A stretch of DNA of 61,968 nt, counting the filler, from Nemertoderma westbladi (taxonomy: Eukaryota > Animalia > Xenacoelomorpha), in NCBI GenBank assembly GCA_032718475.1. It is 4 parts of 4 records of this genome, joined end to end, with 100 filler letters (N's around TTAATTAATTAA, not from the genome) between each part and the next. Parts side by side here need not be neighbours in the genome. Positions count along the whole stretch, not along the records: positions 1 to 16,476 come from JAUCBJ010000371.1; 3 more parts are not named here. One strand, given 5' to 3'. Numbering within the stretch: position 1 is the stretch's first letter; the number at the start of each line of letters is the position of its first letter. The notes beneath the pieces are model-generated. The model saw nothing but the letters and a program-made list of their open reading frames with translations, was not told where the DNA came from and did no database searches. A program made the position numbers and the translations under genes. This document shows, one piece after another, positions 3,394 through 46,655 of the stretch.

Positions 3394-5849
3394 TGCAGTT
3401 AAGTGAAAATATTTCGGCACCATTTAATTATCGATTGTAATGTTCTGGAAATATCTTGGTCCGGTATGTTAATCGGCAATTAGTACTTGACGTGACACAC
3501 ACACTGCACTGCTGCACACGGCTGTACAGTACATACACTGTACTGCTGTATGCAGACATACCATACAACTGTACAATGTATCAAAGATTCTGCCTGTGCG
3601 TTGCCAACACTACAGCACAGCTGATCAATAACCAGTATTTTCATGTATTTGTAGGCCTAACTTCTCCTGTTCTCTGCTTGTTGCGCCTTCGGCGCTACAG
3701 AAATGGAATGCCATAGAACGCAACAGAATGTACAGTACAAGCCAATGGAATTACAGTGGAATGTATAAACCATTCTTAGGTTGTTTGCTGTTGCGCCAAT
3801 GTTGTTCATTGGTTATAGGGCTGTTGTGCTGTTGCGCCGTTGCACTGTTGCCTGTTTTCATGGAAGCCTAAAGTTAGGCATATCCCTTATTGGCTATGTA
3901 ATGTAAAGGTTAATGTAAAATTCCACTGATATATAATCCAAGTGTCAGCTACGAATCCGGGGCTCATTATAACAGCCTATACTGGACAGAGCAACGTATT
4001 GGGGACAAGAGCTGGTTGAGGTATATGTACAGTGGAAATTCCCATTCTAAATAAGGGCATTTGGAATAAATGTTCCCTAGTTATGTATGGTTAAAGATAT
4101 ACTGTGGGTGCCTTGCAAATGGCATGTAAGACTGATGCATTATAGGCTATAGTGTCATCATAGTCACGTTATTTCATTTCATTTTATGCAATTTATTATT
4201 TTTTGATTTATTTTTTATAATTTATTGTGCAATTTATTCATGTTGTGCAATTTATTCATTGTGCAATTTAATTATGTGGTGCAATTTATTCACTTATAAT
4301 AAATCTAAATACATTCGTATAATAATAAAAATAAATGACAATCAAATTATTAGTGATATCGCAACCTCCTTCCCCAGGCTCAACTTCATCCCAAATAGTC
4401 CTTAATAAGTCTTAAATTTGACTCAAATAGGTTGTTAGTGTCCCATATAGAGTGTTTGTGTCCCATATAGGTTGATTTTGTCCAAAATAGCCTATAGCTT
4501 TATCAAAATTATTTCAAATAGTTTATAAATGTAAAGGAATACTGAAAAGAATATCGACTTCATAATCATAGTTTTAATTCCAATTTGTCCCAAATAGGTT
4601 GTTTATGTCCCATATAGTGTGTTTGTGTCCCATACAGGGTGTTTTTGTACCAAATAGCATGTAACTTTCTCAAAATGATTTTACATTGTTTATAAATATA
4701 ATGCAAATACTCAAAAGAAAATAGAATCCACTATCATAGCTTTAATTTAAATTTGTCCCTAATAGGTTGTTTATGTCCCATATAGTGTGTTTGTGTCCCA
4801 TACAGGGTGTTTTTGTACCAAATAGCATGTAACTTTCTCAAAATGATTTTACATTGTTTATAAATATAATGGAAATACTCAAAAGAAAATAGAATCCACT
4901 ATCATAGCGTTAATTTAAATTTGTCCCTAATAGGTTGTTTGTGTCCTGTATAGGGTGTTTCTGTTCTGAATAGGGTGTACATTTCTTATAATGATTTTAA
5001 ATAGTTTCTAAATGTAATGGAATACTCAAAAGAATATAGAATTCACTATCAGAGCGTTAATTTAAATTTGTCCCAAATATGTTGTTTGTGTCCCATAGGG
5101 TGTTTATGTCCCATATAGGGTGTGAATCGCTTATAATGATTTGAAATAGTTTCTAAATGTAAGGGAATACTCAAAAGAATATAGAATTCACTACCATAGC
5201 TTTAATTTCAATTTGTCCCAAATAGATTGTTTTTGTCCCATATAGGGTGTTTGTGTCCCATATAGGGTGTTTGTGTCCAAAATAGCGTGTGACTTTCTCA
5301 AAATGATTTTACGTAGTTTATAAATATAATGGAATACTTAAAAGAAAATATAATTCACTATCATTTGTTACATTAACAACAACCTATTTGGTAAAAATTT
5401 AAATTAAAGCCATGATACTGAATTCTATATATTCTTTTGAGTATTCCATTATATTTATAAACTATGTAAAATCATTTTGAGATAGTCACACGCTATTTGG
5501 GACACAAACACCGGTAAGCGTATTCAATTCCACTTCATTACCCACCAGAAAATGGGCTAGTGACATTTTAGCAATATGTTGGGGATACGAGATTACCAAT
5601 ATCAATCTCGTATCATAACCAACATAGGGGGGGGGGGGGGGGGGGGCACATGCCCCGAAGCCACATAGAAAGGAAGGTTAGAGGTCAAACCACCTTGGAG
5701 GGAACACAGCTAGTAGAGGCTAGCAGCGGGGGGGAAACACTCCCAGAGAATGCCAAGATGACCAGTAGTATATTAGCCAATAGAAGGGAGGGAAGCACGT
5801 GATAGGGAACAGCAAAGCATCCATTGGGTAGAAGGCCAAAGTAGAGTAA

Positions 5850-6822
5850 CTACTACTAGGATCGGCATGCTGCATTGCAGCTGCATTTTTAAGAATGCTG
5901 TGCCGGCTTATCGACAAAATTGCACCGCCACAACTCCCTATCACCCATGACATTTGCTAGATCATCCGCATCTTCAAGGCCAGTGTCCTTTAAGATGCGT
6001 CTCAAGAAAGTCATGGGCTGTCCACCATGCTTATTCACTCCATGAGGCTGCCAAAGTACAAGATTATGCACTGGCTGGTCCTCACGGCGAAAGCAATGTC
6101 CTGCAAAGCGGAGGCGATTTTGTTCTAGTGTCAAGCTTGGGGGAACCAATGTGACACCTCCAATGTTATATAGTGTCTGGTTGGAGATGTGTGCATTGTA
6201 CTTGACACAATGAACCTGGCGTAGCATTCTTGTGAATGTGCCATCCAGAGATTTGGTGTCCTCAGCAGTTAGAGCCCAGCATGGACTCCCATAGAGGAGT
6301 ACTGGAACTACTGCAGCTCTAAATAATCGAACCTTAAGTTTCCGATTAATTCTCGGTGACTTCCAAATCCTGGAAAGCCTATTCAAGGCTGCCCATGCCT
6401 TTCCCTTACGTATTCGAAGGTCCTCACCTGACTTCCGGATCCATGATCCCAGGTAACAGAGTCATACCATACTGCTCAAGCATACCAACATTTGAGCTTA
6501 TGCTCATCCGATAAGAGATTTGCTGAGGAGTTTCAAAGTTGTTAAAATGTTGGTCTTTCTGGAGTTAATAAAAAGACCAACACTAGAAGCAGCATGTTCT
6601 AATGAGCTGAGAAGCCGTTGGGCTCCCTCTAGTGATTCTGAGAGTACTCCTAAGTCATCAGCAAAGTCTAGATCAGTTAGGTACTTGGCAGGATTTCCTC
6701 GACTTCTGGAGCCAGTAGGTGGAGTTATCATCACCCCATCATCATTATGATGATCTAAGGACATGCGTAGAACATAGTCAACGCATGTCCTTAGACATGC
6801 GTTGACTATGTTCTACGCATGT
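5850..6822 (-). mobile_element. 5'-truncated RTE-clade LINE inserted in the 5' LTR
   Basis: 14-bp TSD CCAAAGTAGAGTAA (5836-5849 and 6823-6836), single-copy in the 3' LTR. RT motifs DLDFADD, YLGSWI, KLKVRLFRAAVVPVLLYG and RLRFAGH; short (TAG)n tail. Confidence 0.9.
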
Positions 6823-7031
6823 CCAAAGTAGAGTAAGAAGGTGAAGCAATATTCAATGTATTAGCCATATATTATCTCAGATTTTGTGCATTGGTTGTGT
6901 TATTCAGTTTAGGGCAGTCCGGTCATAGTTATTGACCAACACCGCCATACCGGTAACTATATTCAGTTATTCTGCAATTTCTACATTGTGCTATTATCGA
7001 ATGTATTAACTAATAACGAGACAACAATAAC

Positions 7032-7588
7032 TGTGAGCGTATTCAATTCCGCCACACTAAACCCCATAAAGTTGGCGTTAAGCAATATTGGAACTACAAG
7101 GTTGATTACCAATCAACCTTGTATCACCCCAATAAGCGGGGCAACAAACCCCAAAGGGAAACACACACAATGGGGGTCAGAGGTTATACCTCCAGGGGAG
7201 AGGAGAGAGTAGACAGCAGCGGGGGAGAGAACACTCCCAGCGGGAGATGAGAGGGTGAGAAGTGAGCTATTAGCCAATGGGGGGAAGGCATCGGCTGAGT
7301 AGTGTAATGCGGCCAACCGTGCAATATATATTACCAGTCTTTTGTATCATTCCATTCAGTTATCCCAGTACAGTCACGGCAGTACGGTGACAGTTAAGAC
7401 CGTCGCCGCCGTCACCAATACTACCATATTATCCATATCCTGTAACTGTGCTATCTACTGTTATCTCATTTACTATACCGTATCTATTATCAACGACACT
7501 GGAACAAACAACTCTTTTCCATTCACACGGCGGGGACGCGTACGTAAACAACACCGGATAAACCGGGATCCTCTCGGATCCCGTCACA
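7032..7588 (+). repeat. LTR-B of a related Bel/Pao family, acting as 5' LTR of the internal region
   Basis: Starts TGTGAGCGTATTCAATTCC (LTR-A starts TGTAAGCGGATTCAATTCC) and ends GATCCCGTCACA like LTR-A; the interior is divergent. Confidence 0.8.
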
Positions 7589-7659
7589 GTCTTAACTCAC
7601 AAGAGTCTTAACTTCTAAGACCTGCCGAACTGTGACTGCTAGCCACCGACAGAGTAAAG

Positions 7660-10600
7660 ATGAGTAGAGAAGGAGAGAGGACACCGCCGCGGACCCCGGA
7701 CGACAACCTAACGATCCGCGAGGCCGCGACGAGACGGTATCAACTCACGACGCCAGGTTCGTCGACGATAAGCGATCCGGCGGCCCAGGCGGAGGGCGGC
7801 CGTCTACCACAACGAGGAGGAGAGAACGAGTCGAGAGAAGGGAGAGACGAGTCGACGCACGACGGCGGTCGACGTACCGATGTCGCCGGCCAGCCACAGG
7901 CCGAGGGCGACGGACGGTCCACCGGAACGGCGACGGTGGGGCCGCCGGTACGACGCCGGACACGGAAGGATAGAGGAGATGTCGGCGACGAGGACGTCGG
8001 AGTCAGCAACCGGCTCCGACGAGCCTACCTCGCGACCCGGAAGCAACTGAGAGAAGCCAGAGGAGGGGCCAAGATAGACGAGGTGAAGTTAGAAAAGCGA
8101 CTAGGTGAGTCGAACAGACATTTTGATTACCTAGTGCGTTTTGGGCAGGGAGAACTAGCCAGCGAGAGAGCGAGAGGGGTTGCCAGCGAACTGTTTGAAC
8201 TATGGGAATGTAGGGGTATGGAGCCTAGTGTAGTGTACATAGGGCCATACTTAGTCGATGCCCGGGGAATAGAATTAGTGGGTTGGAGGGGACCGCACGA
8301 GGGCGAATCCGAGGTTAACTCCGAGGATTCGGTCTCGTCGGTCAGCGAGAACCCCGGAAAGCGGGGGAAAGTTAGTAGGACGGAGGGGCGACGGGAGTCC
8401 GTCGCAACCGATAAGTCTGCTACATCCTCCGCAAAAGAAAGACGGGTGCGGGAGATAAATCTGGCGTATAAATTAGAGGTTGCGGCGCTAGAACAGAGAG
8501 AAAGAGAGTGGGCAAAGGAGGACAGAGAGAGAGAGACAGAGGCAGAGTGTGTGCGGGATGACTTGCATGCCCGCCTAAGGGGGCTTATACTATATCAAGC
8601 CAAACTGAGGCGCCGACTAGAACTGGTGCGGTCGGGACTATCAGAGAGTGAGACCCCACTTACAGACACCGGGCGAGAGAACCAGAACTGGTGTAGCCGT
8701 ACGGGCGGGGGGGGGGGGGGGGGGGGTTAGTAGTAGTACGTTAGGTGTTGGTATTATAGTACCTAGTAGATAACCCTAATCCCTTTATTACAGGAAATAT
8801 TTTACCGGTAATTTAAATTTAAATACAAATAATCTAAATAATAATTTCAATTCAATACGCGCAAAATAATTCGAATAATAATTTCAATTTAGAAAATAAT
8901 AATAATTCTAATTTAAGTAATTTAAATAATAATCCCGTTTCAAATTCTAATAATTCTAATAATTTAATTGATTTAGGGGATTTAATTGATTTAACAGATA
9001 ATATTGGGAATGGTGCTATTAATATGAACGTGGCGGACGTGCATAGCCCGGCAAATGGGGGCCTGGTAGGCCACGTGTTAGTAGCAGGAAGTAGCGGGGT
9101 TGAGTCAACCCGAGGTGGGCCTGGTAGGCCACGCAGTAGTAGAGGAAGAGGCGGGGGTGAATAAACCCAGCCGCAGTAGTGTTAGTGCGTCGACTAGAGA
9201 GGGGTGTAGAGGTGAAGTTAGAAATAGTGAAGGTAGATGTGGCGAGTGGGGGGGGGGGGGGGGCTACGGGCGCCCTATCACGGAAGATTAGTGGCGAGAG
9301 AGGGGGGGCAGAGAATGCCCCACAAGAGGGGTGTAGAAGTGTAGTAAGAGATAGTGAAGTTAGAAGTAGCGGGTGGGGGGGGGGGGGGGGCTACGGGCGC
9401 CCCACCACGGAAGATTAGTGGATTAGTGACGAGAGAAGGGGGGTAGAGAATGTCCGACAAGAGGGACGCAGAAGTGTAGTAAGAGATAGTGAAGTTAGAA
9501 GTAGCGGGTGGGGGGGGGGGGGCTACGGGCACCCCACCGCGAGAGATTAGTAGCGAGAAAGAAGGGGCAGAAAATGTCCCACAGGTGTCGGCGGATAATG
9601 TGCGGGGCAAGATAGGTGAACCGCGGCACCCGACGACGGAGTATAGTAGGGGGATGGCGAGTATCCCCAGGAAGGTCCAACCGGACAGAGTAGAGTCAGA
9701 TGTTAGAGCCGAGAGTAGATTAGTAGAGTTTAATCGGGAGTTCGAAGAGAGAAGAAGTGAAGATAATAGAAGAGTCGTTGCTAGGAGCAACCGGAGAGCG
9801 AGGACGGATAGCGAGCCGTCAATAGTAGAGATGGAGTTAGGGAGTCAGTGGGGTCGAACTTCGGGAGATTGCCGTCGCCCCGGAGAAACGCACCGCACGC
9901 CAAGAGAGGGGTACAGGACGTACCGATACAAAGTCGAGAACAGGAGTGGGGATCGAAGAGAAACTTCCCGACGGGATATAGCTGCCGATCGAGAGTACGG
10001 TAGTCGCGGGGAGATTCGAGATTCGAGAGAATTAAACTTCGGTTCGGAAGGGCACACGCAGACTGCAGGACATACTGTAGGCCTTACTGCACATACTATT
10101 ATAGGCCATGCTGGGAGAGATAGAGTAGGCGATAGGGTAGCGCGGACGATGGGATTAAACCCGGAAGTCGCGGAGTACATACCGGTAGGTAGGCAAGAAG
10201 TGGATAGGCCTATATCGGTACCAGCACAGCAGCATGACTATAATATCCAGGGACATAACATATATCCAGGGGAGGGGAGGGTTATTGCAGATAGATGTAT
10301 GGGCCCCAATATATTAACATCAACCCCAGTACCAAACATACCGGTGGGGGGGGGGGGGGGGGGGGCAGGGTGACATTCCCCCATTACAATATCAACAATA
10401 TACTCGAACAGCAACGAGAACACCGAACCCCCTGGACGAGAACAGGTCGTGCGACACGGAAATATGGAGGGGGCCGTTACCCCCAATGATATATCCGACG
10501 CAACAAATCCCAGTCTATAGTGAGGATAGTTTGGGGAAGGCACCAAAGACCGAATACAACAGGCCTAGACCCGAACATAATCCGACAGACCCATTCTCAA

Positions 10601-11632
10601 GAGTAAGACAGTCACTACCACACGCGGCCACACAGGGGACTGCTAGTCCACAGTTAGCTGGTAGTAGGGCCACACCGTGGCAGGGACAGAAACAAAATAA
10701 CAACACGAACAAACATAATCCCAACATACCCAGTAGGCCGAGTCCAAATAACCAAAACACTAAACCGGTAGATATGAATCTACGCACAATACGTGAAAGG
10801 CTATAAGGGAGCGCTACAATCCAGGATACGAATGTCAATTGCATAGGGATGGGACCCATAAGACCATGAGTTGTAAGCATTGGCAAGAGTTGCCTAAACA
10901 AGATCGTGTAGCCTATGCGGATAGAAACGGACATGTCATCGATGCGTGGTAGAAGGACACAGATTCGGAGAGTATAGGGAAACACCGATAGGAGACGACG
11001 AGACTGGAGGCCAAACTATGGATACGAGCACATCGGGAGCAAGGAGAAAGAGGAAAGTACTACTCGGGGTAGTACCAGTGAGGATAACAGGAAAGGGCGG
11101 CCAATCAGTCACAACATTGATGCTGGTCGAAAGCGGAGCAGCCTTCACGCTGGTGTAGAATTGGATGGCCGAGGAGATAGGGTTACAGACAAGGCCGAGT
11201 AGGATGGCGGTAACTACTATCTCGAGTAAGGATGAGGTCCTGGAGATGAGGACGGGACGGTGCGAGATATCAGCAATAGCACCAGGATGTGATTATGGGG
11301 CGACCATCGACCCCATACAGATAATAGAATCGATTAATATAAGCGCCAGACGACCCACCAGGATCAAGGTCGAGCAATACAGATTCCTGGACGATATCGA
11401 TTTCTCAATACCAGAAGTGGACATCTCGAAGGTATCCATCATAGTCGGAATGGATTGTCCGATGGCCCACGAGAGAGTACGGACCATATTCGGAGAGAAT
11501 AAGCAGCGGGATCCGACGGCGATTCTCACGCCATTCGGATGGACGCTTAGCAGCCCAATTAAAACCAAGATTCCACTCAGGGTGTTGGAGACATCAGGGT
11601 GCATGCTATCAGGCACCGTTGAAGACGTATAG
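7660..11632 (+). pseudogene. Bel/Pao gag-protease region broken by frameshifts and stops (several at poly-G runs)
   Basis: Low-complexity/coiled-coil N-terminus (7660-8730). Knuckles CQLHRDGTHKTMSC and CHRCVVEGHRFGEY at ~10830-10980. Protease VLLGVVPVRI...MLVESGAAFTLV...IIVGMD...TPFGWTL (DUF1758-like, catalytic D replaced by E). Confidence 0.75.
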
Positions 11633-12089
11633 GAGAAACCAGAGACGGGCGATGGGGATGTCCCATGTGAGAAGCGGCCCGGGGAAGGATACCAGGAGTT
11701 GGGTATGGATCTGGAAACACGCATAGTGGAGCGTGGTGAAAGGATATAGGATGGTTCCAGAAAATACCGTCGGTAGATGAATCAGGAAGGGAAGTTACAG
11801 CAAGAGAGTGGGCGGAGGAGAATGGATTCGACGCAGAAGACTTAGAGACGATGGGATGGAACAAGGATGTTCCCGGCAACTATCGGTATGAGGATGGAGA
11901 AGAGTGGACATGCGAGATGTCTGGAGAAGTGTCCAGAGGAGACGCCGGTCCGGTTGAGAGGCATACCGAAAAGGGGGAGGTCAAATAAGAAGATAGGGTG
12001 GAAAGGGATAGGATTAGTATTATCCATTCTGTTCTATCTATTCTTTCGATTTCTTTTCATTCTACCGCCAGGTGACGACAAGATGAAGG

Positions 12090-12314
12090 GTGGCATTTTG
12101 CTGCCAGGGGACCATGAGGAAATCAGGAAGGCGACTGGAAGACCCGATTTTAGGGTGGTGGAGGAGGCTAGCGAGAGTGGTAGATGCTTACCCCGACGAG
12201 GACGGAAGAGTCTGGTCGGTGGAGGTGAGAATAGGAGGCAAGATAGGAGCAAAGGACAGGAAGGCCTACAGGAGGGCTGTAGGAAAGTGCTGCCTATTAG
12301 AAGGGGCACATTAG
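12090..12314 (+). pseudogene. Bel/Pao integrase C-terminal (DUF5641-like) remnant
   Basis: W..LARVVDAYPDEDGRVWSVEVR...YRRAVGKCCLLE matches the typical GRV...YPG.DG.VR.V.V...R...KL..L pattern. Confidence 0.8.
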
Positions 12315-12569
12315 AGTTTAGTCGTCCAAATGTTGGACTGAGGGGGGTGGGAATGAGGGCGAGACGCCCTTCCTACACAAAATATAATAAATAATAAGTA
12401 AAAAAAAAATAATAAAATAAGAAGTGAGATAATAGAAAGTTAGAAAGTAATAGTAGTAGATAGTTAGATAGTAGGTAGCGCTAGTTAGAAGTTAGTAAGA
12501 AGTAGGGAGTTAAAAAGTTAGTAGAAGTTAGTAAGAGTAAGAGGAGAGTTAGTAGTTAGAAGATTAGGG

Positions 12570-13025
12570 AGTGTGGTATATAGACATACCACGAGAGTAG
12601 TAGCAGGGTACATAGTATCGGAGTAGCAGGGTACAAAGTACCGAGAGAGTTAGAGGTTGTGGGCACTGAAAGCGCCACGTAGAAAGAGAGTAGAGGGCAT
12701 GGTATGCAGATATACCATAGAAAGAGAGTAGAGGGGTTATGGGCACCGAGAGCGCCACGTAGAAAGAGAGTTAGAGGTTGTGGGCACCGAAAGCGCCACG
12801 TAGAAAGAGAGTAGAGGGTATGGTATGCAGGTATACCATAGAGGTAGTAGCAGAGGGGTTGTGGGCACCAAAAGCGCCACGTAGTGAGAGAGTGAAGGGT
12901 GTGGTAAGTAGATATTAGGTTGTGGGATGGAGTAGGTAGTAGGTAGTTTATGTAGGTTGTGTAGGTAGTAGCAGTATTAGGGTACATAGTACCAAGTTAG
13001 AGGTTGTGGGCACCGAGAGCATAGT
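12570..13025 (+). repeat. Array of two alternating hairpin modules with purine-rich linkers in the 3' UTR of the LTR element
   Basis: GTGGGCACCGAAAGCGCCAC about 5 copies and ATGGTATGCAGGTATACCAT-type about 3 copies, separated by GTAGAAAGAGAGTAGAGG. Confidence 0.7.
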
Positions 13026-16000
13026 AGAGAGTATGTAGGCATAGCATAGTAGTAGTAGGGTACTTAGTGGTAAGAAGTTCTTAAGGGTAAGAAGCAAGTA
13101 GCAAGGTAGATAGGATGATAGCACAGACAGGGGTAAGACTAAGGAAAATTGGCACTTTGGGAGTGGTAGAGATCACAGGACATTGTCGAGCAGTGGGGAT
13201 GGGCCAGCTCATGGGCCTTGTCTGCCATAAGCCGATGGACTGGGGCAAGTTCCGGTGGGAGCACGGAGCGGGCACAGGACATTGTGGAGCAGTGGCGATT
13301 GGCCAGCTCATGAGGCTTGTCTGCCACAAGCCGATGGACTGGGGTAAGTTCCGAGAGGAGTATGAGAGGAGTGCGAGGGAAGTATGGAGAGGAGGTGTTG
13401 GTGCATGAGGAAGTGAGAGGAGTGCAATTCAAGCATGGGGAGCGAGCAGGGAGAGAGGAAGAGTCCCAAAGGGGGAGAGAGAGAGAGTAAGGGACAGAGA
13501 GGTCCGAGAGTAAGATAGAGTAGAATGAGGTTAGAGTGAGTTCAGGGCGAAGTGGTATAAAATTGTGTGAAAAGGGAGTCCACAATTGTATCGAACAGAG
13601 ACGTCAGATACCTTGGTGCAACATAGCTCGCGATTGCACCAAGGAGGGGTAGTAACATCATACCCAGGGGGGGCGGCCTAGAAAGCCAACCCCGAGAAAA
13701 GAACTCCACCCCACACCCGATATTAGATCGGGTTCCAGCGGAATTGTAGCGCACTTGAGGTTGATGCTATCTTCTCACCGGGAAGATAGCATGGGGGGGA
13801 GTGTAAGCGGATTCAATTCCACTTCATTACCCACCAGAAAATGGGCTAGTGGCATTTTAGCAATATGTTGGGGATACGAGATTACCAATATCAATCTCGT
13901 ATCATAACAAACATTGGGGGGGGGGGGGGGGCGACACATGCCCCGAAGCCACATAGAAAGGAAGGTTAGAGGTCAAACCACCTCGGAGGGAACACAGCTA
14001 GTAGAGGCTAGCAGTGGGGGGGAAACACTCCCAGAGAGTGAGAGTGCCAAGGTGACAAGTAGTATATTAGCCAATAGAAGGGAGGGAAGCACGTGATCGG
14101 GAACAGCAAAGCATCCATTGGGTAGAAGGCCAAAGTAGAGTAAGAAGTTGAAGCAATATTCAATGTATTAGCCATATATTATCTCAGATTGTTATATTAG
14201 TGCATCAGTTGTGTTATTAAGTTTTAGAGCAGTCCGGTCATAGTTATTGACTGAAACCGCCATACCGGTAACTATATTCAGTTATTCTGCAATTTCTACA
14301 TTGTGCTATTATCGAACGTATTAACTAATAACGAGACAACAATAACTCTCATTGTTTTTACCCAACGGCCTCGGCCAAAGCTATTAGCACGATCCCCAAT
14401 GCAGAACGGTGACGCGTATTCTAACTGGTCGGGATCTCTGATCCCGTCACAACACCCTTTATGGGACACAAACACCCTATATGGGACATAAACAACATAT
14501 TTTGGACAAATTTAAATTAAAGCTATGATAGTAAATTCTATATTCTTTTGAGTACTCCATTACATTTAGAAACTATTTAAATCATTATAAGAAATGTACA
14601 CCCTATTCAGGACAGAAACACCCTATACGGGACACAAACAACCTATTTGTGAAAAATTGTAATTAAAGCTATGATAGTGAATTATATTTTATTTTGAGTA
14701 TTCCATTATATTTATAAACTATGTAAAATCATTTTGAGAAAGTCATACGCTATTTGGCACACAAACACCCTATATGGGACAAAAACAACCTATTTGGGAC
14801 AAATTTAAATAAAAGCTATGATAGTGAATTATATTTTCTTTTGAGTATTACATTATTTATAAACTATGTAAAATCATTTTGAGAAAGTCACACGAAATTT
14901 GGGACACAAACACCCTATATGGGACATAAACAACCTATTTTGGACAAATTTAAATTAAAGCTATGATAGTGAATTCCATATTCTTTTGAGTATTCCATTT
15001 CATTTAGAAAATATTTGAAATCATTATAAGCAATTCACACCCTATACGGGACACAAACACCCTATATGAGACAAAAACAACCTATTTGGGACAAATTGAA
15101 ATTAAAACTATGGTAGTGAATTCTATATTCTTTTGAGTATTCCATGAGATTTAGAAACTATTTAAATCATTTTGAGAAAGTCATACGCTATTTGGGATAC
15201 AAACACCCTATAGGGGACACAAACACCCTATATGGCACACAAACAACCTATTTGGGACTAATTTAAATGAAAGCTATGATAGTGAATTCTATATTCTTTT
15301 GAGTATTCCATTACATTTCGAAACTATTTGAAATCATCATAAGCACTTCACACCCTATACGGGACAAAAACACCCTGTATGGGACACAAACACCCTATAT
15401 GGGACATAAACAACCTATTTGGGACAAATTGGAATTAAAGCTATGATTATGAAGTCGATATTCTTTTCAGTATTCCTTTACATTTATAAACTATTTGAAA
15501 TAATTTTGATAAAGCTATAGGCTATTTTGGACAAAATCAACCTATATGGGACACAAACACTCTATATGGGACACTAACAACCTATTTGAGTCAAATTTAA
15601 GACTTATTAAGGACTATTTGGGATGAAGTTGAGCCTGGGGAAGGAGGTTGCGATATCACTAATTTGATTGTCATTTATTTTTATTATTATACGAATGTAT
15701 TTAGATTTATTATAAGTGAATAAATTGCACCACATAAATAAATTGCACAATGAATAAATTGCACAACATGAATAAATTGCACAATAAATTATAAAAAATA
15801 AATCAAAAAATAATAAATTGCATAAAATGAAATGAAATACGTGACTATAATGCATCACAGTCTTACAGGCCATTTGCAAGGCACCCACAGTATATCTTTA
15901 ACCATACATAACTAGGGAGCATGTATTCCAAATGCCCTTATTTAGAATGGGAATTTCCACTGTACATATACCTCAACCAGCTCTTGTCCCCAATACGTTG

Positions 16001-16163
16001 CTCTGTCCAGTATAGGTTGTTATAATGAGCCCCGGATTCGTAGCGGACACTTGGATTATATATCAGTGGAATTTTCCATTAACCTTTATTATTATTATTA
16101 TTAAGTTTATTGACGATAAAAACTTACCAGTAAATAGCCACAAGTACGGTGGCTGAATTCGGC

Positions 16164-21408: not shown

Positions 21409-23341
21409 TTATTTATAATTATTATTCGATCTTCTCAGATGCCTTTTTTTAGTTGTAAAACGTGACTTCATTCTCAATAACAGGCTCGATTGTGGCGCCA
21501 TTTCAGTTGTCTGCCACTTAGTAACTACATCCTCCACCACATCTAGAGTGCCCAGTCGGCGGTATTCTTCAATAATATCAATGAAAACCTGAATCCCAAA
21601 CCAAATATTCTCAGCGGTGCCATCATCAACATTATCCACATGCTCCACTACAGCTTCAGCATTTGACGGCATGGTAGTGAAGAAGCTGTCCTTTTGGCTG
21701 GGAATGATAAACCGTGGCATGATGCCGGTGGCAGCACACATAAACCCCCAAAGAGAAGTCAGACTGTACTCGTGAAGAAGGCCTTCCGTTGTGAGAAGTC
21801 CTTTAAATATGGGGTCAGACGAGGGAAGTCCCAGTTTTAGGCAGACTCGGGAGAACGTCTCACGATAAACATCTAGGTATTCATGAAGATGTTCTTTCCT
21901 CATCGCCGGTGTCGACACTTGGGAGAGGTAATGGTGAACGTCTGTAAGTGAAGAGGAAAATCGGTGAATTTGGAAGTCGAAGAACTTAACTCTCCCCGTG
22001 GCAGCGAGGAAGGCAACGTTCCACATGTGAAAGTCCCCGTGACACACTACGTTAAACGGTCCCTCGCGACTCCCAATGTGACCCATCAAATGGAACACAT
22101 CAGGGATAAATTTACGGATTCGACCCAAAGTTTCAACCATACCCGGTGGAAACTTCAGTGGGATCTTGAGGTTGTCGTCTACAGCAGAGAGGGAGGTGAT
22201 TAGTTGGATGTGGTATGTGAGAGTATCGGAGAAGCAATGTTTGAGTTGCTGTGCATGGCGCGGTGCTAGGAAGTACTCTTCCAACAGAGGAACCTCTCGC
22301 ACCCATTGGGCCCTTTCTAGAACTTGCATCGCATAGCTAGTTGCATGCCATGATGCTATACCTAAAATAAAGATAAATAAAGGCTCTGCATTACTGTATA
22401 AAACACCTAAACGAATACTACTAAAAATGGTCGAAATTCAACAACATTAGTTGCAACAATCTACATAGTCGAGTGGCTTAGTAGCCCTAACCCTAACTAT
22501 TAACTATCCTATTCTAACTATTAACTAACTATCCCATTCTCCAAAAAAACCAAACCAAACCAAACAAAGGGTATACAGATAGGGAGACTAAGGATCTAAA
22601 TAGTGATGTTCCAGAATCAAAAAAATTTGCAATAAGCTGTTCCAATTCAATGGGAAAGGCTACTTTTCTACTTAAATTGTTAGTAGGGAGGGACCTCTAT
22701 ACTACTGTATTTACATAGGCACAATAACAGTTTTAGCATTAGTGTCGTACAAAAGTCAACAGGAAATTTTTTACGTCAAACTGTGACAATAAAATTGTCG
22801 ATATTCCTGTCCGTTTTTCCATACCTGTTAATGAGGCTGTAATTTGTTGTAATGAGTGGAAATCTTTCCTGCCAGTAACTGCGTACCCCGGTTTCACAAC
22901 GTCATCCATTATTATTACTAATTTATCCCTCCCTGCGTCCGTCCCACCCGTAACTAACCCACTCCCGTAGTATTTCGGCACCAAACAACTCAATGTTTCT
23001 CCATCCGTCAACCCCTTCCCCCGTCTCGTTTGGAATTCCACCATTCGGGGTAGAATATCTTCGTAGAAGGCGATTTCTTTATCGAAAGTCTTGAGAAAAT
23101 CGTTAAAGTACATCCCGTCCTTAGCGGGAACCTTAGCGAACAAATTCAGTGGAGATTGCTTCCAGTTCACGAACTTTACCTCGGTAACCAGCGGAACACT
23201 CGTCAAACCGAGAATGACGCCTTCCTGCAGTTTCTCTACAGTCACTTTAGCTACCTTCCCCAAACCAGAATCTTCCACCAGCGACTCCACCAAAAACTCG
23301 ACATTATCGAATATTTTCCTCTTTATCTTCTTCTTTAGCAT
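21409..23341 (-). CDS. Ecdysteroid kinase-like (EcKL / choline-kinase-like) protein, paralog 1; exons 23341-22825 and 22361-21409, ~489 aa
   Basis: A GT-AG phase-1 intron joins two ORFs in frame. Motifs LFAK, E..FY..ILP, PKYYG, IASWHA, VVCHGDFHMWN and FFDFQ. Confidence 0.88.
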
Positions 23342-23494
23342 TTTAGTACAAGGGATTAGCTTAGACTATACTGAAGTACTTTGAGATAGCGATAAACGCA
23401 GTATAAAAAGAAACAAATAAATCAAGGTTCGACATAAAAATCGGTAACAAGTCAGGTGAGCCTTAGTGTAGGGGTATAATTAGTGGGTCGCCTG

Positions 23495-23712
23495 GGGTGT
23501 AAACGCTACGCCGACAACCGACAGCCGACAAGACAACCAACGCCGACAACCATTATTAAAGCTAAGTATTGTTAATTATTAATTGAGGGAAAGGGACAGG
23601 TTACAGTGGAAGGTTATTCTAACCAAAACAATAAACGAGAGTCACGAACTCAGGTTACATTTTCATTTTTGCTGTTGTCGGCAGTGGTTGTCGGTTGTCG
23701 GCGTTTACACCC
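23495..23712. mobile_element. MITE with 12-bp TIR and 9-bp TSD (Mutator-like)
   Basis: TIR GGGTGTAAACGC / GCGTTTACACCC, subterminal CCGACA repeats, TSD GGTCGCCTG (23486-23494 and 23713-23721). Partial copy at ~27945-28010. Confidence 0.8.
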
Positions 23713-24167
23713 GGTCGCCTGTTGTAGTCGGAAATGTTTATTATGATCTTTGTTGGCAACAGCTTAGCAAATTCCGACAATTATGGCTTAACTGACACAC
23801 ACTGAACCATTTGGAAAATGTCCCTAGTAGGCCTACAGTATAATAAATAATAACTGCACGCTGAAAGTTCACCGTTCTATTGTATTTGCAGTTCTATTGT
23901 ATTGATCTCCAACAACATTAAAGTTAAGACGATATTGTAAAAAATAGGAAATAGATAAAATTCTAAAGTCCATTTCCCCGAACCAACACCCCCTTTATTG
24001 AACTGTATAGGCATTCTTGTCTGTAGAATCAGATTCCTGTAATACAAATTATTACAATTAACTAATTAATTGTAGGCCTTGTTAATAAAAAAAAAACTAA
24101 AAGGTTAATTTTTATTACAGTATCGGCATCCCACTAGTCCAACCAAGGAAATAATTCCTTCACTGAA

Positions 24168-26004
24168 ATGTTAAAGAGGAAAATATTCGATACTGTGGAG
24201 TATTTGGTTGAGTCGCTGGTTGAAGATGCTGGTTTGGGGAAGGTTGCTAAAGTGACTGTGGGAAAACCAACGGAAAGCGCCAGTCTCGGCATGGCGAGTG
24301 TTCCGTTGGCAATCGAGGTAAAGTTAGTGAACGAGGAGAAAGATCCACTAAGTTTATTCGCGAAGATTGCAGAGAAGGATGGGATGTCCGGATATTTTAA
24401 CGATTTTCTCAAGACTTTCGATAAAGAAATCGTCTTCTACGAAGATATTCTACCTCGAATGGCGGAATTCCAAACGAGACGGGGGAAGGGGTTGACGGAT
24501 GGAGAAACATTGAGTTGTTTGGTGCCGAAATACTACGGGAGTGGGTTAGTTACGGGTGGGACGGACGCAGGGAAGGATAAATTAGTAATAATAATGGAAG
24601 ACATTGTGAAACCGGGGTACGCAGTTACTGGCAGGAAAGATTTCCACTCATTACAACAGATTACAGCCTCATTAACAGGTATGGAAAAACAGGTGGTATG
24701 TGGGTCATTGTATAAACACGACCTAATAATTTAATTCGTACCGGTACACAACGGCTTAATTCATCATTTAATAAACTGATAAAATACCTCGCTCAGGGTA
24801 AACGTTTCGCTCATCGAATAATATTAGTTAAACCGTTCCGTGTTGGGACGAATGATAAGCAGATAACCCATGAAAGGATATGATAAAGTCTGGAATGAAC
24901 GTACTTTAACAATGGAATCCAATCCAGAACAGATCCCTTACATCTAAAGAGCCAGGTCATTTTGGTTGTAAATAGTAGTAAAATTATGGCCAAATCTCAT
25001 GTGACAAACTGACATTATGAACATTTTAAAATCATTTATGAAAATATATTTACCTTTATTCTTATTAAGGTATAGCATCATGGCACGCAACTAGCTATGT
25101 GATGCAAGTTATGGAAGGGACCGAATGGGTGCGAGAGGTTCCTCTGTTGGAAGAGTACTTCCTAGCACCTCGTCATGCACAGCAACTGACACCATGGTTC
25201 TCCGACACTCTCACATACCACATCCAACTAATCACCTCCCTCTCCGCTGTAGACGACAACCTCAAGATCCCACTGAAGTTTCCACCGGGTCTCGCCGAAA
25301 CTTTGGTTCGAATCCGTAAATTTATCCCCGATGTGTTCCATTTGATGAGTAAAATTGGGAGTCACGAGGGACCATTTAATGTAGTTTGTCACGGGGACTT
25401 CCACATGTGGAACGTTGCCTTCCTCGCTGCTACAGGGAGAGTTAAGTTCTTCGACTTACAAATTCACCGATTTTCATCTTCACTTACAGACGTTCACCAT
25501 TACCTCTCCCAAGTGTCGACACCGGCGATGAGGAATGAACATCTTCATGAATACCTAGATGTTTATCGTGAGACGTTCTCCCGAGTCTGCCTAAAACTGG
25601 GACTTCCCTCGTCTGACCCGATATTTAAAGGACTTCTCACAACGGAAGGCCTTCTTTACGAGTACAGTCTGACGTCTCTTTGGGGGTTTGTGTGCGCAGC
25701 TGCCTACGTTCTGCCACGGTTTATTATTCCCAGCCAGAAGGACAGCTTCTTCACTACCATGCCGTCTGATGCTGAAGCTGTAGTGGAGCATGTGAATAAT
25801 GTTGATGATGGCACCACAGAGAATATTTGGTTTGGGATACAGGTTTTCATTGATATCGTTGAAGAATACCGCCGACTGGGCACTCTAGATATGGTGGAGG
25901 ATGTAGTTACTAAGTGGCAGACAACGGGAGTGGCGTCCAAATCGAACCATATCGAGCCCCTTACCGAAGTCAGGTTTTACAAATTGAAAAATGCCGTTGA
26001 TTAG
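24168..26004 (+). CDS. EcKL protein, paralog 2; exons 24168-24678 and 25070-26004, ~481 aa
   Basis: Same intron position and phase as paralog 1; HGDFHMWN and FFDLQ motifs; open frame after splicing. Confidence 0.88.
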
Positions 26005-34500: not shown

Positions 34501-37500
34501 ACCAGGTGCGATTTAACAAAGGGTGTCGCAAGATGGTGTATAAAAGAGACTTCAAAGAAGCAGAGAAGTCTGTAGAATTCCTTCAAGAGAGGTATCACCC
34601 AGAAATTCCACAGAAGAAAGAAGGTGTACGGGGAATTAACACAGCAAAGAAGGAGATTATCCTAAAGAAACTTGTTAATCTCATGCCAGGAAACAGATCG
34701 TCTTTCTGGTTATCGATGACATCGAAACAATCACAAACAGACCTTAATAGTGGCTACGATCACTCTTTAGCTAATGAGTAGATCTGTATTGAATAAAACT
34801 GATCGATTTATTAAACTCATTATTCTATAACACGGATCAATGTATTAAACTCATATTTGTTTAAACTGAACTGTTTAATTAACTATAAATTGTATTAAAC
34901 TGATCGCTATAAACTATAAACATCGCTATCATAATTGTAAAAACTGATCATTAAATCTTATCTATGTATCATCTTTGTATAAAACTGCTCTATATATTAA
35001 ACTCAAATTTGTATAAAACTGCTCTATATATTAAACTCAAATTTGTATAAAACTGATCTATGTATTAAACTCATATTTGTATAAAACCGATCTACAGTAT
35101 AAATTAAACTCATATTTGTATAAAACCGTTCTTTCTACTGTATTAAACTCATATTTGTATAAAACCGATCGATGCATTGAACTCATTTTGTATATAACTG
35201 ATCTACAGTATATATTAAACTCATATTTGTATAAAACCGTTCTATGTATTAAACTATAAATTGTATTAAACTGATCGTTACATTAAACTAACTGTTCATT
35301 TTATTTTATTCCCTTACCATGAATTGTAGTTTATTAGTTAATGGTTTTCAATATTAATGGTAATTATTAATTAATAAAATAAAAGTTTATATTCAAACAT
35401 AGAGATAAACGGTTTTGTTAAAAATTAAAATATAAAAGATAGCTGGTTTTGAAGAATAAAAAATGAGTTAGCCGATTTTGATCCAAAAAAATTTACATGT
35501 TTGCGGCGCAAGTATATTGACCAATACCTGCTATGGTGTACTATCGGTGTACTATGGTGTTTTTAACATATTTCCCTTTATTTTTACGCCTTAATTTTGC
35601 CTCAGGTGGATTCGGCACATGCGTTTACCCTATATTGAATATTAATATGGAAATTTCCCCAATTAATCCCAGTAAGAATTTAAAATGAATAACCATAAAA
35701 AACCGGAATGGTTTTTGGCCATTTTCTCAAAATGCCAAAAATTGAGATACACGGTTTTGGAATATAAGGGCCGTGCTGCACTGGTAAGTACGAAATTGCA
35801 GAATAACAATTTGACACCACCTAGCGGATTAACATATGATTGTATATCGAATGAATACATTTATAGCATGGGATATGGGGTCCAAACTAGACATGCCCCA
35901 TTTGCTCTATATGAACCGTATGCCAAGGCTTGCCGACTACGTGCTGCGCGAAGTCCCCACGAACGTGTTTATGTGTTTGTAAGTAATTGTTTATAAATAT
36001 GTTAGTTAGTTATTTAGTTATAGTCAGTTATTTATATATAATTAATACCATTTATAAGATATGTGTTTAAGATTAGGTTAATAAATATTAAATAAGTAGG
36101 CCTATAGATTAGTATTCCCGAAGGCTATCACTTATAACGTATTACTCAACTTCTATGTTTATATTTTGCAGATAGTTTCTGCTTGTGAGGAAGTTGTTGA
36201 AGCAGCTAAGAACGCTATTGTTGATGTCGTGGATTCCTTCCATCACAATGACATCATCGATGCTTCAAACCGACTAGTAGTCGCCGCAGCTAAAATTAGC
36301 AATATATGTTATGAGAACGACAACTATAACGTTAATAACAACAGGTGCGGTGTACTGTTTATGCCATTCTGTGACAGCATGTTTTATGACATGCCAATAT
36401 GCCATATGTAACAGGCCATTTCGCAGGCTGTTAAGTATGAAATCATTTTAGGATTCACCATAAAACTTTGACACACGATATCGCTCCGATTAGAGATGTT
36501 ATTTTACGGCTGATATCTTTGTGGGGTAAACTGAACTGAAAGTAAAATATTTTGGCGGTTGACCTCTTGACCATTAAGTGACAGTCCTCATTGAGTCAGA
36601 CCACTTTATTTTACTGTAGTTTACTACAAAACATATTACTGTAAGTCAGGATAAATTGCCAATAAGGCGCTGACAGTTGGTGTCCGTAAGTTATGGGGCA
36701 AGCCACAAAGTAAGCGAGCTTAGCATACAGTTAACGGTGTTTCAACCGTTTTCTGTCGGTCGATCAGCCTGTCTGTCGCCGAATTGATAAATCAGCCAAT
36801 CTTTGGTGCAATTAAACCAAACTTGGTACACATTTAATCTTTCGAAAGACTGATATAGAATTTGCGTTCTCTAGTTCTACAGTCTCCCGGTTTCGGGCGA
36901 CTAGACAACGGTCTAAATATTGGCACCAGTACGATGAGCTTGTTTACTTTGTCCTGCTCGAAAGCATAACCAACGATAATATACAATTTGACAGGCTAAG
37001 AATTAAACTTATCATACAATAAATCAAGCCATCGTTTTACTAACATTTCATCTATATAATATTTCAGTTAATAACAATTACAAAAAGAAAATCCATTTAA
37101 TAGATACCGAAATGTAATAGTAAAAGAAAGTAGCCATCATAATTAATTCATGTTAATTAATATAATTAAATAATGTATTTCAGTATTGGTGATGCTGCTA
37201 ACGAAATAATAAACGCTATTGGAGAGGTGTTGGTGGCATGGAATAAAATAGAAGTAGATCGCATTGTTAACTCTTGTCAATGGTTCGTGAAAAACACCAT
37301 CAATGTCAGCAAAATAACCTCCCATGGTACCGAAGCTATAATCTTGAGTTTCAGAGATATGGTTGAGTCATTTGTAGTTATGAAAGCCATGGCGGATAAG
37401 CGAGCTAAGGATGCCATTGACGATGGACATGGAGAAAGGATAATGAAACAATTGGATTCGATTACTGCAGATATACCTGTAGTGAACACAATGATTAAAG

Positions 37501-39971
37501 ACGAACTAGAAGGTTGCCAATCGACTTTGTTCCATAAAGACAAACTCAATGCAATTCTCAAAGACATGGCGAGAGCTGCTAATCATATTATCCAAGAGTT
37601 TGGGGAACATGGATATCAGTTTGATGGGATTAAGTCGCAGGTATACGGCGCTTTTTTATGGAAAGCGCAGGAGCTGAAGTCGAGTTTCAAGGCGAACGCT
37701 GATATATCGGCGGAAGAACAACAATTAGCGTTGCTGAATGACATGTGTATGTTTGGTAATCAGTTAGCGAACAAGTGCCCCCCGTATCAAAAGAAATTGG
37801 CTTCATGTGCCCAAATTATTTTATCGAAGAAAGAAAGCCTTTACGACAACAAGAACATTACTGGAGAACGGAAACTCAACCTGTCGACACGTCAGGATAT
37901 ATTGCGGTGTTGCGACGAGTTGCGTGATCTCGCTATGGACGCGTGCGCCAGTCTAGTTGTAGATACATTCGTCACAGTTGCTGAGCCGATCAACGACATT
38001 ATTAACTACGTCCACCAGGTTATCGAGAACTCGGCGCCGTCCCTAGTCGATATAGAGACGGCTTATCGCGGCTTCCAGGTTCACCGTTCTCAGGTATGCT
38101 TCACATCCAACGCAGTGCTCGATCTTAGTCACAGCAATGCCAACGCTGTACAAGTTGATGAGTGCATTAATCGTATTGATACTATCGGAGATAAACTTTA
38201 TGAAGGCGTAGAAGACTGCTGTGATTCTCTTGAGGACACATCACTAGAGAGGCTCCACAACCAACACAGACAGTTTACCTCCGACATTAAACTTCTAATG
38301 GATTCATTGCAACGTCTTGTGGGAGCAGAAAGACTTATTGCTACGGCTGAACTAATGATTGAAGAAAATTTAGAGGAAATAGAGAAACATTTGAAAGAAA
38401 AAAACCACCTGAAGGTACGGGAAATTGGATCACAATTAGTCAGCAGGGCTAACAGAGTAGTTTCCATAGCAACAAGTCACGTAGACGAATCTATCAATGC
38501 GATTTACCGCAATGGAGTTCTATCTTATTTGAAGCAGTTGAGCAATGCCATTGATAAAGTGGAGACCACTTCGACTAATATTGATGTGAAGTCGGAATGT
38601 GTGAAATTCCGCAATGGATGCACCGATTGTGTTTTGTTTATAGCGAAAACGCGTCAAGCATTAACTCGTCATCTACAACCTTGGTTGCTCAGTGACAACA
38701 GAAAAAATGTGAGAGATAGGATTGCAGGTTGTGATTCGGATGCAGTGGAATCCAGCCATGTATCTGGACGCCCTAACGGATTACATAAACGTTATGGCTC
38801 GGCCCCGAACTTCCCAACGATCTACGAATCGCAAGAGAGCTTACTGCAGCAACAACACCAGCGAGGTGAATCGTTTGTTCTTTTACATCCCACCGTCAGC
38901 CACCATGTTCCCGCCAACACGGAGTCATTGTTAGCACTCGGCGGAGGTCGTTTTCGTAGCGTCGTAAACCGTATAATTCAACTTATGAAACTCTATGCAT
39001 TCTGGACAGAACCGAGTCCAGCCGTAGAGGAAGTTATATTACAAACTGCCGTGTTGCAGGACAAAGCAAACTATATTAACAGGGAGTTGGGCAAGACTTC
39101 GGAAGATAATTATATTAGTGGAAATCTGTGGGACAAAGCAAATCGGGAACAATCGGAGATTTGCAATAAGACTGAAGAATGTTTATCAATGATGAGGTCA
39201 CTCTGCTCACCTTGGAGCGATGTCTCCCAGTCCTGGTTAGTTCTTCTTCAAACCAACCCCATTGCAGCTAATGATATATCACTGTTCATCAAGGGCACAC
39301 GTACACGCATGTGCGATTTATACATCTTTACGAAAAGTAAACAAATTCATTTATGCGATATGCCTGAACACCTGCCAACTCCAGATGATGTTTTTAGGGA
39401 CATAGAGTCGATTTCAAACGAAATGGTAGATTCGGAGGTTATCTCTGAAAACGACCTTCCAAATTTACAACAAATTTATTGGTGCATTTTGATCGTAGTT
39501 GGTATTGCCATTATCGACAAGAATCTGCAACACTTTCTTCCGGGTTTAGAGAATGTGTTAGAGTTTGGGGATGAAGATGAGACCACAGAAAGCGATGAAG
39601 TGTTATCCTGGATCCAAAAGTCAACAGCTCTACTTTCAAATTTTGGTATTTGCGATGGTCATCTAACCATTCAAGTTAATGATTTACTATCAAAAACCAC
39701 AGATGTCCAACACATGAGGAATTTGGCGGCTGTTAAACGCCAGCAAAGTTTCGCACATAGTAAAGCATTATGTGGTTACCATTTGTTATTTCGTGAATGG
39801 GTAGTCGCCTTGGCAAACGTTATAGAAGCTATCGACATACTTGTTACTAATGGAGGAGAAGTTCCAAGTAAATTATTGAATTTAATCGGCGCCGAATCGG
39901 AATTTCAGTTGCCACACACGAAGCACAGAATTCTTATCGAATACCAAACTGCCTGTCAACAAGAAATGGCT
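31573..39971 (+). CDS. Divergent vinculin/alpha-catenin family protein, 3' end lost in gap; exons 31573-31752, 36172-36344 and 37184->39971
   Basis: Three exons splice in frame (phase 0, then phase 2) with canonical sites. Helical-bundle motifs resemble vinculin D1 (KSALDIILPI; EVLVAWNKIEVDRIVNSC; MADKRAKD) and the alpha-catenin middle region (VVDTFVTVAEPI). Family call is from recall, not an HMM. Confidence 0.7.
33225..34056 (+). repeat. 39-bp G-rich minisatellite inside the Sola element (about 21 copies)
   Basis: Unit GGTGACGTTGGAGGGGGACATACAGAGGGGAGTGGGAGT, translating as GDVGGGHTEGSGS. Confidence 0.95.
34785..35290. repeat. Degenerate ~36-40-bp AT-rich tandem repeat in the Sola 3' region
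   Basis: Recurrent TATTAAACTCATATTTGTATAAAAC(T/C)G. Confidence 0.75.
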
Positions 39972-40071
39972 NNNNNNNNNNNNNNNNNNNNNNNNNNNNN
40001 NNNNNNNNNNNNNNNTTAATTAATTAANNNNNNNNNNNNNNNNNNNNNNNNNNNNNNNNNNNNNNNNNNNN
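39972..40071. other. Artificial contig spacer
   Basis: 44 N + TTAATTAATTAA + 44 N. Confidence 0.95.
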
Positions 40072-46058: not shown

Positions 46059-46655
46059 TACTACTACTACTACTACTACTACTACGATCGGTATGCTGCA
46101 TTGCAGCTGTAACATATATATTATATACATATATATTAAGAATGCTGTGCCGGCTTGTCGACAAAATTGCGCCGCCACAACTCCCTGTCACCCATGAAAT
46201 TTGCTAGATCATCCGCATATTCAAGGCCAGTGTCTTTTAAGATGCGTCTCAAGAAAATCATGGGCTATCCACCATCGCCATGCTTATTCGCTCCATGAGG
46301 CAGCCAAAGCACAAGATTGCGCTGGCTGGTCCTCACGGCGAATGCAATGTCCCGCGAAGCGGAGGCTGTTCCGTTCAAGTGTCAAGCTATGGGAGACTAA
46401 TGGAACACCTGCAATGTTGTAGAGAGTCTGGTTGGAGATGTGTTCATTGTACTCGACACAGTGATCCCGGCGTAGCATTCTTGTGAATGTACCATCCAGA
46501 GATTTGGTATCCTTTGTTCAGTTAGAGCCCAGCATGGACTCCAATATAAGAGTACTGGTACTACTACTGCCATAAATAATCGAGCCTTAAGGTTCCGTTT
46601 TATCCTAATGGAATTCCAAATCCTGGACAGACTATTTAACGCTGCCCATGCAGCA
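46059..46655 (-). mobile_element. 3' fragment of an RTE LINE, same family as 5850-6822
   Basis: High similarity to 5850-6400; (TAG)n tail; AWAALNSLSRIW...LFMAVVVPVLLY...LRFAGH. Confidence 0.88.

Follow-up and report, generated by a model that had tools for sequence, protein, structure and literature searches.

Complementarity between a BEL/Pao leader and its own LTR in Nemertoderma westbladi: a candidate for self-primed reverse transcription

How would a retrotransposon whose leader lacks a tRNA-type primer-binding site (PBS) begin its minus-strand DNA? The question is raised by a BEL/Pao locus of Nemertoderma westbladi (GCA_032718475.1), contained in a window of 61,968 nt, the whole stretch of DNA analysed here, in which parts of four records are joined. 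An initial annotation of this window had proposed priming with the element's own RNA, in the manner of Tf1 of S. pombe. Self-priming remains the best reading of the locus, but a start of transcription at 7392, as in the strict Tf1 model, appears less likely than one near 7358. Coordinates of the features are collected in Table 1.

Table 1. Features of the locus, with positions counted along the whole window
Feature	Position	Strand	Remark
LTR-C, divergent	401–1035	−	5′ end approximate; motif AGTTTAGAC at 630–622
Host element A (BEL/Pao LTR retrotransposon with deletions)	5513–14451	+	in 146-bp satellite
5′ LTR-A	5513–7031	+	two pieces, 5513–5849 and 6837–7031; truncated by LTR-B
Initiator homolog in 5′ LTR-A	6904–6909	+	taken for the motif in the initial annotation
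Primer-motif homolog AGTTATTGAC in 5′ LTR-A	6927–6936	+	from side-by-side reading
LTR-B, TG..CA	7032–7588	+	557 bp; serves as 5′ LTR for leader and gag-like ORF
Predicted promoter	7269–7361	+	CCAAT box 7269–7278, TATA 7325–7330, initiator-like TCAGTT 7356–7361
Candidate self-primer end AGTTAAGAC	7392–7400	+	predicted cut 7400/7401
Helix 5′ strand, stacked on primer helix	7401–7412	+	pairs with 7527–7538
Helix 3′ (U5) strand	7527–7538	+	beside ACGCG block common to three LTRs
Terminal 8-bp U5 hairpin	7564–7583	+	directly before LTR end
PBS-position 9-mer GTCTTAACT	7589–7597	+	offset zero from LTR-B end
Second PBS copy and TAAGAC	7605–7621	+	7605–7613 and 7616–7621; TAAGAC able to pair with either copy
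gag-like ORF	7660–8730	+	by position alone; no Pfam hit
Broken aspartic protease region, BEL/Pao type	11054–11629	+	PF13650, E 2.4e-5
Integrase-region C-terminal tail, DUF5641-like	12138–12311	+	blastp to relatives' C-termini
Polypurine tract (PPT) adjoining 3′ LTR	13793–13801	+	
3′ LTR-A	13802–14451	+	650 bp; primer-motif homolog 14242–14251

Anatomy and classification of the locus

Element A is flanked by the 5-bp target site duplication ACACC (5508–5512 and 14452–14456), and 23 of 531 aligned positions distinguish its two LTR copies. A repeat of ~1 kb, inserted with a 14-bp target duplication, interrupts the 5′ copy, and LTR-B lies nested inside this 5′ LTR of the older element. The LTRs on either side of the internal region belong to different families: LTR-B is ~63% like LTR-A, and in its 5′ half only. 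The PPT was correctly placed, with the 3′ LTR beginning at 13802.

The coding capacity of this copy is reduced. Neither a reverse transcriptase (RT) nor RNase H nor an integrase core was found in the element, nor was any pol remnant beyond the protease and the integrase tail. Searching with the protease yielded 403 relatives (E ≤ 0.001), the best only ~35% identical, and nine of the 10 relatives scanned by Pfam carry DUF1759, Peptidase_A17 or DUF5641; the tail matched a six-sequence set of relatives' C-termini by blastp at E 2e-5 to 4e-4. The structural marks of BEL/Pao (TG..CA LTRs, a short target site duplication, a PPT) are present, with the LTR-B family differing from the 3′ LTR. Because the pol core is absent, the relatives carry BEL/Pao Pfam families, and the LTRs belong to two families, the element is on sequence grounds a non-autonomous, chimeric BEL/Pao copy. 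By the same kind of evidence it is not a member of the Tf1/sushi group of Ty3/gypsy chromoviruses: its relatives are BEL/Pao by Pfam, and no Ty3/gypsy polyprotein with a chromodomain was found. As the copy is without RT, its phylogenetic placement uses the protease tree only. None of 657 candidates from a protease word search and none of 489 metagenome stretches compared with gag was a close relative, and searches of prokaryote and viral contigs with P0009 (none) and of viral contigs with alignment A3 (0 of 66) were likewise empty. Four viral-contig matches to the LTR-end pattern were judged chance-like.

Several other features of the window were recorded. The repeat within 5′ LTR-A (5850–6836) has an 83% copy at 46075–46651 and is probably a LINE fragment; a 66-nt near-perfect palindrome (6759–6824, 94%) lies at its edge, with Rfam miRNA matches far under threshold. 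The satellite region flanking element A is itself present as an inverted duplication (3904–5364 and 14671–16088, 89.6%), and a long non-coding repetitive stretch with tandem duplications of 80–140 nt runs from the pol end to the PPT (12340–13800). Additionally, a 949-codon open frame at 37170–40019, unusual as a single stretch and ending in an N run, matches the vinculin family (PF01044, E 8e-17), and three ecdysteroid-kinase-like frames (PF02958) occur with a histone deacetylase frame across 21409–26004 and 59996–60769.

The leader 9-mer and its complement in LTR-B

The end of LTR-B stands as first annotated, and both copies of the leader 9-mer are exact reverse complements of the motif at 7392–7400. 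Polarity is correct for minus-strand priming, with 7400 opposite 7589, and TGG is absent throughout 7589–7660, as had been claimed for the tRNA-type site; no mature tRNA 3′ end is therefore able to pair there, and the 18-nt tRNA-Arg or tRNA-Gly PBS described by the ICTV, though not as a criterion of classification, was not found in this leader. The window contains no tRNA genes, and an Rfam search over 5400–14600 returned four sub-threshold matches, none of them at LTR-B or the leader. As in Tf1-type elements, the PBS is complementary to its own LTR and adjoins the LTR end (9 of 9 bp, offset 0).

When LTR-B was dinucleotide-shuffled 20,000 times, 50 shuffles produced a match of at least 9 nt at offset 0, and 117 did so when offsets of 0–3 were allowed. 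As background, 685 of 61,047 9-mers in the window (1.1%, repeats included) have a complement in the preceding 557 nt. The PBS matches its own LTR-B over 9 nt, whereas its match to any other LTR of the window spans only 4–5 nt. The primer–PBS helix is short, at 9 bp and −9.5 kcal/mol, and falls below the 10-bp rule applied to other elements (PMC6317226). The match between LTR-B and the PBS is real but short.

Other copies in the species were read from DNA contigs of four runs (X1–X4), representing three samples at most; 32 of 1,142 contig pieces and 40 of 59 variant rows were listed, and the counts that follow refer to these. A contig from a different study (X3 record 19) bridges 7546–7633 with three differences and no gap, and 13 of the listed pieces cross the LTR-B end, 12 reaching 7590 and six reaching at least 7593. 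Because of this bridging contig and these crossing pieces, the leader belongs natively to LTR-B, despite the chimeric structure of the locus. The sole variant within 7392–7400 among the listed rows is 7393 G>T (4, 3, 1, and 2 contigs in X1–X4), and the sole variant within 7589–7613 is 7612 C>A (two contigs each in X1 and X3). Within the second PBS copy, 7612 occupies base 8, which lies opposite 7393, such that the change restores pairing; a compensatory match of this kind has a chance of ~1 in 27, and the two variants lie on different contigs, unphased.

Loose contig ends in all four runs indicate that other subfamilies share the first two leader bases and then diverge. An X4 contig carries a variant motif that, in its final four bases, is complementary to the opening four of the divergent continuation, unphased, while the fifth misfits the plurality; it is the only LTR variant matching that continuation among the pieces listed. 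In eight of 10 joints, the blocks of the U5 helix described below are both matched and the intervening stretch is skipped. Summed contig depth is high over 7353–7417 and 7522–7590 and low between them; it is not a copy number and was not counted as evidence.

Upstream of the motif, LTR-B contains what we take, from consensus patterns, to be a CCAAT box, a TATA box, and an initiator. The CCAAT block ATTAGCCAAT is invariant across LTR-A, LTR-B, and LTR-C, and a TATA-like stretch followed by TCAGTT occurs in all three, with one base changed in 3′ LTR-A. From this layout, LTR-B transcription is predicted to start near A 7358, 34 nt before the motif; the predicted start would precede the motif end by 43 nt in LTR-B, 40 nt in LTR-C, and 31–32 nt in LTR-A. 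Given such a promoter, priming would use the 3′ terminus of a ~43-nt piece and not the first 9 nt of the transcript, as the Tf1 model has it.

This layout also amends the initial annotation of the motif. The motif does open in CAGTT, in LTR-B as annotated and also in LTR-C, but TCAGTT at 7356, with CCAAT at 7269 and TATA at 7325, is the better initiator candidate. The related motif reported for LTR-C (AGTTTAGAC, minus strand) was retained; those reported for LTR-A, at 6906 and 14220, were not, being homologs of the LTR-B initiator TCAGTT at 7356, while the primer homolog in both LTR-A copies is AGTTATTGAC. The PBS predicted for the LTR-A family was mis-anchored because it had been built on these initiator homologs. 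Contigs aligned on 3′ LTR-A did not reveal the A-family PBS, the one loose end listed at 14451 (X4, two contigs) being uninformative, and LTR-C has no PBS behind its LTR end.

Directly downstream of the motif, the 7401–7412/7527–7538 helix has 11 of 12 Watson–Crick pairs, with pair probabilities of 0.87–1.0 at the 11 paired positions upon folding. Its energy was matched by four of 500 shuffles in LTR-B and, with different letters, by seven of 500 in LTR-C; the same helix in 3′ LTR-A is not significant (53 of 500). In the primer-bound fold, 7392–7412 would pair as a single run with its junction at 7400/7401, followed by the terminal U5 hairpin. The energy of this fold exceeds the minimum by 2 kcal/mol, and its probability in the folding ensemble is only 0.13, because the PBS can alternatively pair with TAAGAC at 7616–7621, which replaces the motif as its partner in the minimum-energy fold; the second PBS copy would be able to take the TAAGAC partner instead. 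Additional pairing between 7358–7391 and the leader appears in folds and is not significant (160 of 2,000 shuffles). The three-duplex “pretzel” of Tf1, with PBS-adjacent arms, was not seen in these folds; one stacked U5 helix and the terminal hairpin were found instead.

Leaders of distant BEL/Pao relatives

A BEL/Pao alignment scan kept 80 of 492 metagenome loci, 28 with a terminal repeat and 52 without. Twelve loci were treated as resolved at the 5′ end of the element's LTR–leader boundary, L024 being doubtful, and six repeat-bearing loci were left out (L025, L040, L073, L079, L082, and L083). TGG lies near the LTR end in one of the 12 resolved leaders (L013). In six of nine families (L016, L045, L051, L059, L074, and L080), the PBS is matched over 11–15 nt at offset 3, solely across a GTAAG..YAG intron in the family's own LTR; unspliced matches span 5–8 nt, and none of 500 shuffled leaders for each of these families reached the spliced match. 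In a cross matrix, each of the six matches best, or ties for best, on its own LTR, with cross-matches among L059, L074, and L080. Under strict donors the match is weak or absent in three of the nine families. L006 has an 8-nt match at offset 0 (13 of 500 shuffles), L013 has one of 10 nt that requires a weaker donor, and L021, L024, L039, L055, and L075 have no clear PBS match.

Ten further loci with a known LTR start yielded six spliced matches of 10–14 nt, one from a new family (L018), and four with nothing clear. The LTR intron measures 76–164 nt in L018 and the six spliced families named above. Of 12 loci from contigs within bacterial MAGs, two (L085 and L086) had resolved ends; they have no TGG and carry an 8-nt match directly 3′ of an acceptor-like CAG, a figure without a shuffle control. 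The BEL/Pao contigs within bacterial MAGs of the prokaryote collection (L085–L096) are likely host DNA contamination. Where a family has a match, the matched PBS starts with GT in seven of eight cases, as it does in the window element.

The spliced families, L018 included, support self-priming more strongly than the window element does. In the protease tree (71 rows, 171 columns), the window element sits on a long branch within a 21-row set (98/98) that includes none of these loci. The relatives thus occupy another subclade, and they therefore document the self-priming logic for the superfamily and not for the window lineage.

A candidate mechanism, its alternatives, and known systems

Self-priming in the broad sense, strict Tf1 and spliced versions included, is in our view probable for the window family. 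We lean toward a more specific version, in which minus-strand DNA would be primed by the element's own RNA, started near 7358 and cut at 7400/7401. After such a start, 7392–7400 would anneal to 7589–7597 and 7401–7412 would pair with U5 at 7527–7538, giving one continuous run with its junction at 7400/7401. Since the copy is without RT and its flanking LTRs are of two families, it would depend on a helper element, whose RNase H would cut at this junction, as in Tf1. The cut would free a ~43-nt 5′ piece with its 3′ C on the base adjoining the LTR end; from that position, extension would open with the terminal TG of the LTR. On the best reading, self-priming gains support from the native junction, one compensatory variant pair, the stacked U5 helix, and the self-complementary PBSs of the relatives.

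A strict Tf1 model, in which a very short 5′-terminal primer results from a start at 7392 or from a splice at the CAG ending at 7393 that rebuilds the 5′ end, is unlikely. It would account for the opening of the motif in CAGTT in LTR-B and LTR-C, and its splice version has a parallel in the relatives, which form the primer at a splice junction, as well as a possible donor at 7183 that would lengthen the match to 10 nt. However, the TATA at 7325 is at a distance of 33 nt from 7358, as against 67 nt for 7392, TCAGTT precedes the motif end by 31–43 nt in 5′ LTR-A, LTR-B, and LTR-C, and contig pieces among those listed start at 7353–7358. Against a splice, 7393 is not preceded by a pyrimidine tract and loses its AG in the G>T variant, and the 7183 donor is upstream of the CCAAT box. 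Splicing inside LTR-B, whose best junction yields a 10-nt match but places the donor upstream of the promoter, is neither required nor supported and was rejected.

A purely structural role for the pairing, as a switch in the leader serving packaging, dimerisation, or translation, with some other RNA as the primer, appears quite unlikely. The leader does offer several mutually exclusive helices, with TAAGAC as the minimum-energy partner of the PBS. However, the match begins at the first post-LTR base and stops exactly where the U5 helix starts, the matches of the relatives keep a fixed offset (3; 0 in L006) and, in seven of eight matching families, the GT start, and no other primer site is visible, TGG being absent.

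Copia-like priming by the 5′ half of a host tRNA is improbable. Its leading candidate would be tRNA-Leu(UAA), cleaved after position 39: by eye, the anticodon arm of tRNA-Leu-TAA-3-1, a human and not a host sequence, gives seven contiguous PBS pairs (the terminal one G-U), a mismatch, and two more (PMC8113476). This pairing is weaker than the nine Watson–Crick pairs formed with the LTR, TTAAGAC is absent from the subset of human tRNAs taken from that source, and the matching LTR variant and the leaders that diverge after two bases would be left unexplained; among plant elements, half-tRNA primers are reported solely in Ty1/copia lineages (PMC6317226).

That the match is coincidental, and the locus a dead and rearranged one that has lost its true PBS, is very improbable: the locus is nested and chimeric, and scanning many elements will meet events at the 0.25–1% level, but the junction recurs in another study's contig, the LTR and the same first two bases occur together in all four runs, a motif homolog lies at the equivalent place in three LTRs, and the relatives follow the same logic.

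Extending self-priming beyond this family, we suggest tentatively, with confidence falling slightly short of even, that a large animal BEL/Pao branch has dropped tRNA priming. The primer would be contiguous, ~40 nt inside the RNA, here and assembled across an LTR intron in the sister branch, and in both it would end A-C (or A-U) beside the cut site, as if by one conserved cleavage chemistry. If so, host splicing would act as a licence for reverse transcription in the spliced branch. Self-priming in BEL/Pao would bring a third LTR superfamily, with a new geometry (an internal or spliced primer), to a mechanism demonstrated for Tf1 alone. Missing PBS calls in BEL/Pao annotation would be explained, and a target site for tRNA fragments would have been removed. 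The model assigns exact positions to the start site and the cut, and these can be tested.

In the ICTV account, Belpaoviridae are tRNA-primed, with an 18-nt PBS for tRNA-Arg or tRNA-Gly, and their replication is poorly understood (PMC8742986). The window element resembles these viruses (Semotivirus) in its protease and integrase-tail similarity, TG..CA LTRs of 0.56–0.65 kb, and PPT at the 3′ LTR; in contrast to their tRNA PBS, it and 11 of 12 resolved relatives have no TGG at the PBS. The initial annotation knew of no self-priming described for BEL/Pao, and the literature searched, including the available portions of PMC3601003, PMC3286476, PMC13524379, PMC8220671, and PMC554778, contained no report of it; most subscription papers and the Repbase and GyDB notes lie outside this scope, and the result is not proof.

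Self-priming has been predicted for the Tcn1 (Ty3/gypsy) and TAR/Houba/Osr-1 (Ty1/copia) lineages (PMC6317226), and the prediction therefore already spans more than one superfamily. As in the window element, it was drawn there from LTR–PBS complementarity; the rule applied there was at least 10 bp within 0–5 bp of the LTR, in plant and fungal hosts, whereas the window element is BEL/Pao with 9 bp. Tf1 primes with its first 11 bases, RNase H cutting between bases 11 and 12 (PMC7175516), and its primer complex is a three-duplex pretzel (bioRxiv 10.1101/2022.12.06.519325); Tj1 self-primes likewise (PMC4600332). Tf1 and Tf2 of S. pombe, together with Tj1, Tosmo/Tcry, and the rest of the Tf1/sushi group, resemble the window element in lacking a tRNA PBS, in having a post-LTR site complementary to their own R region, and in placing one more LTR duplex beside the primer helix. 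However, that group is Ty3/gypsy with 11 bp, whereas the window element is BEL/Pao with 9 bp; the Tf1 primer is the first 11 bases, whereas the window element is predicted to prime with the 3′ terminus of a ~43-nt fragment; and the flanking helix of the window element uses U5 sequence 50 nt before the LTR end, with the terminal hairpin between, whereas the duplexes of the Tf1 pretzel use PBS-adjacent sequence. On this comparison, the window element likely works like Tf1 self-priming, by a route that we found described solely for other retrotransposon groups.
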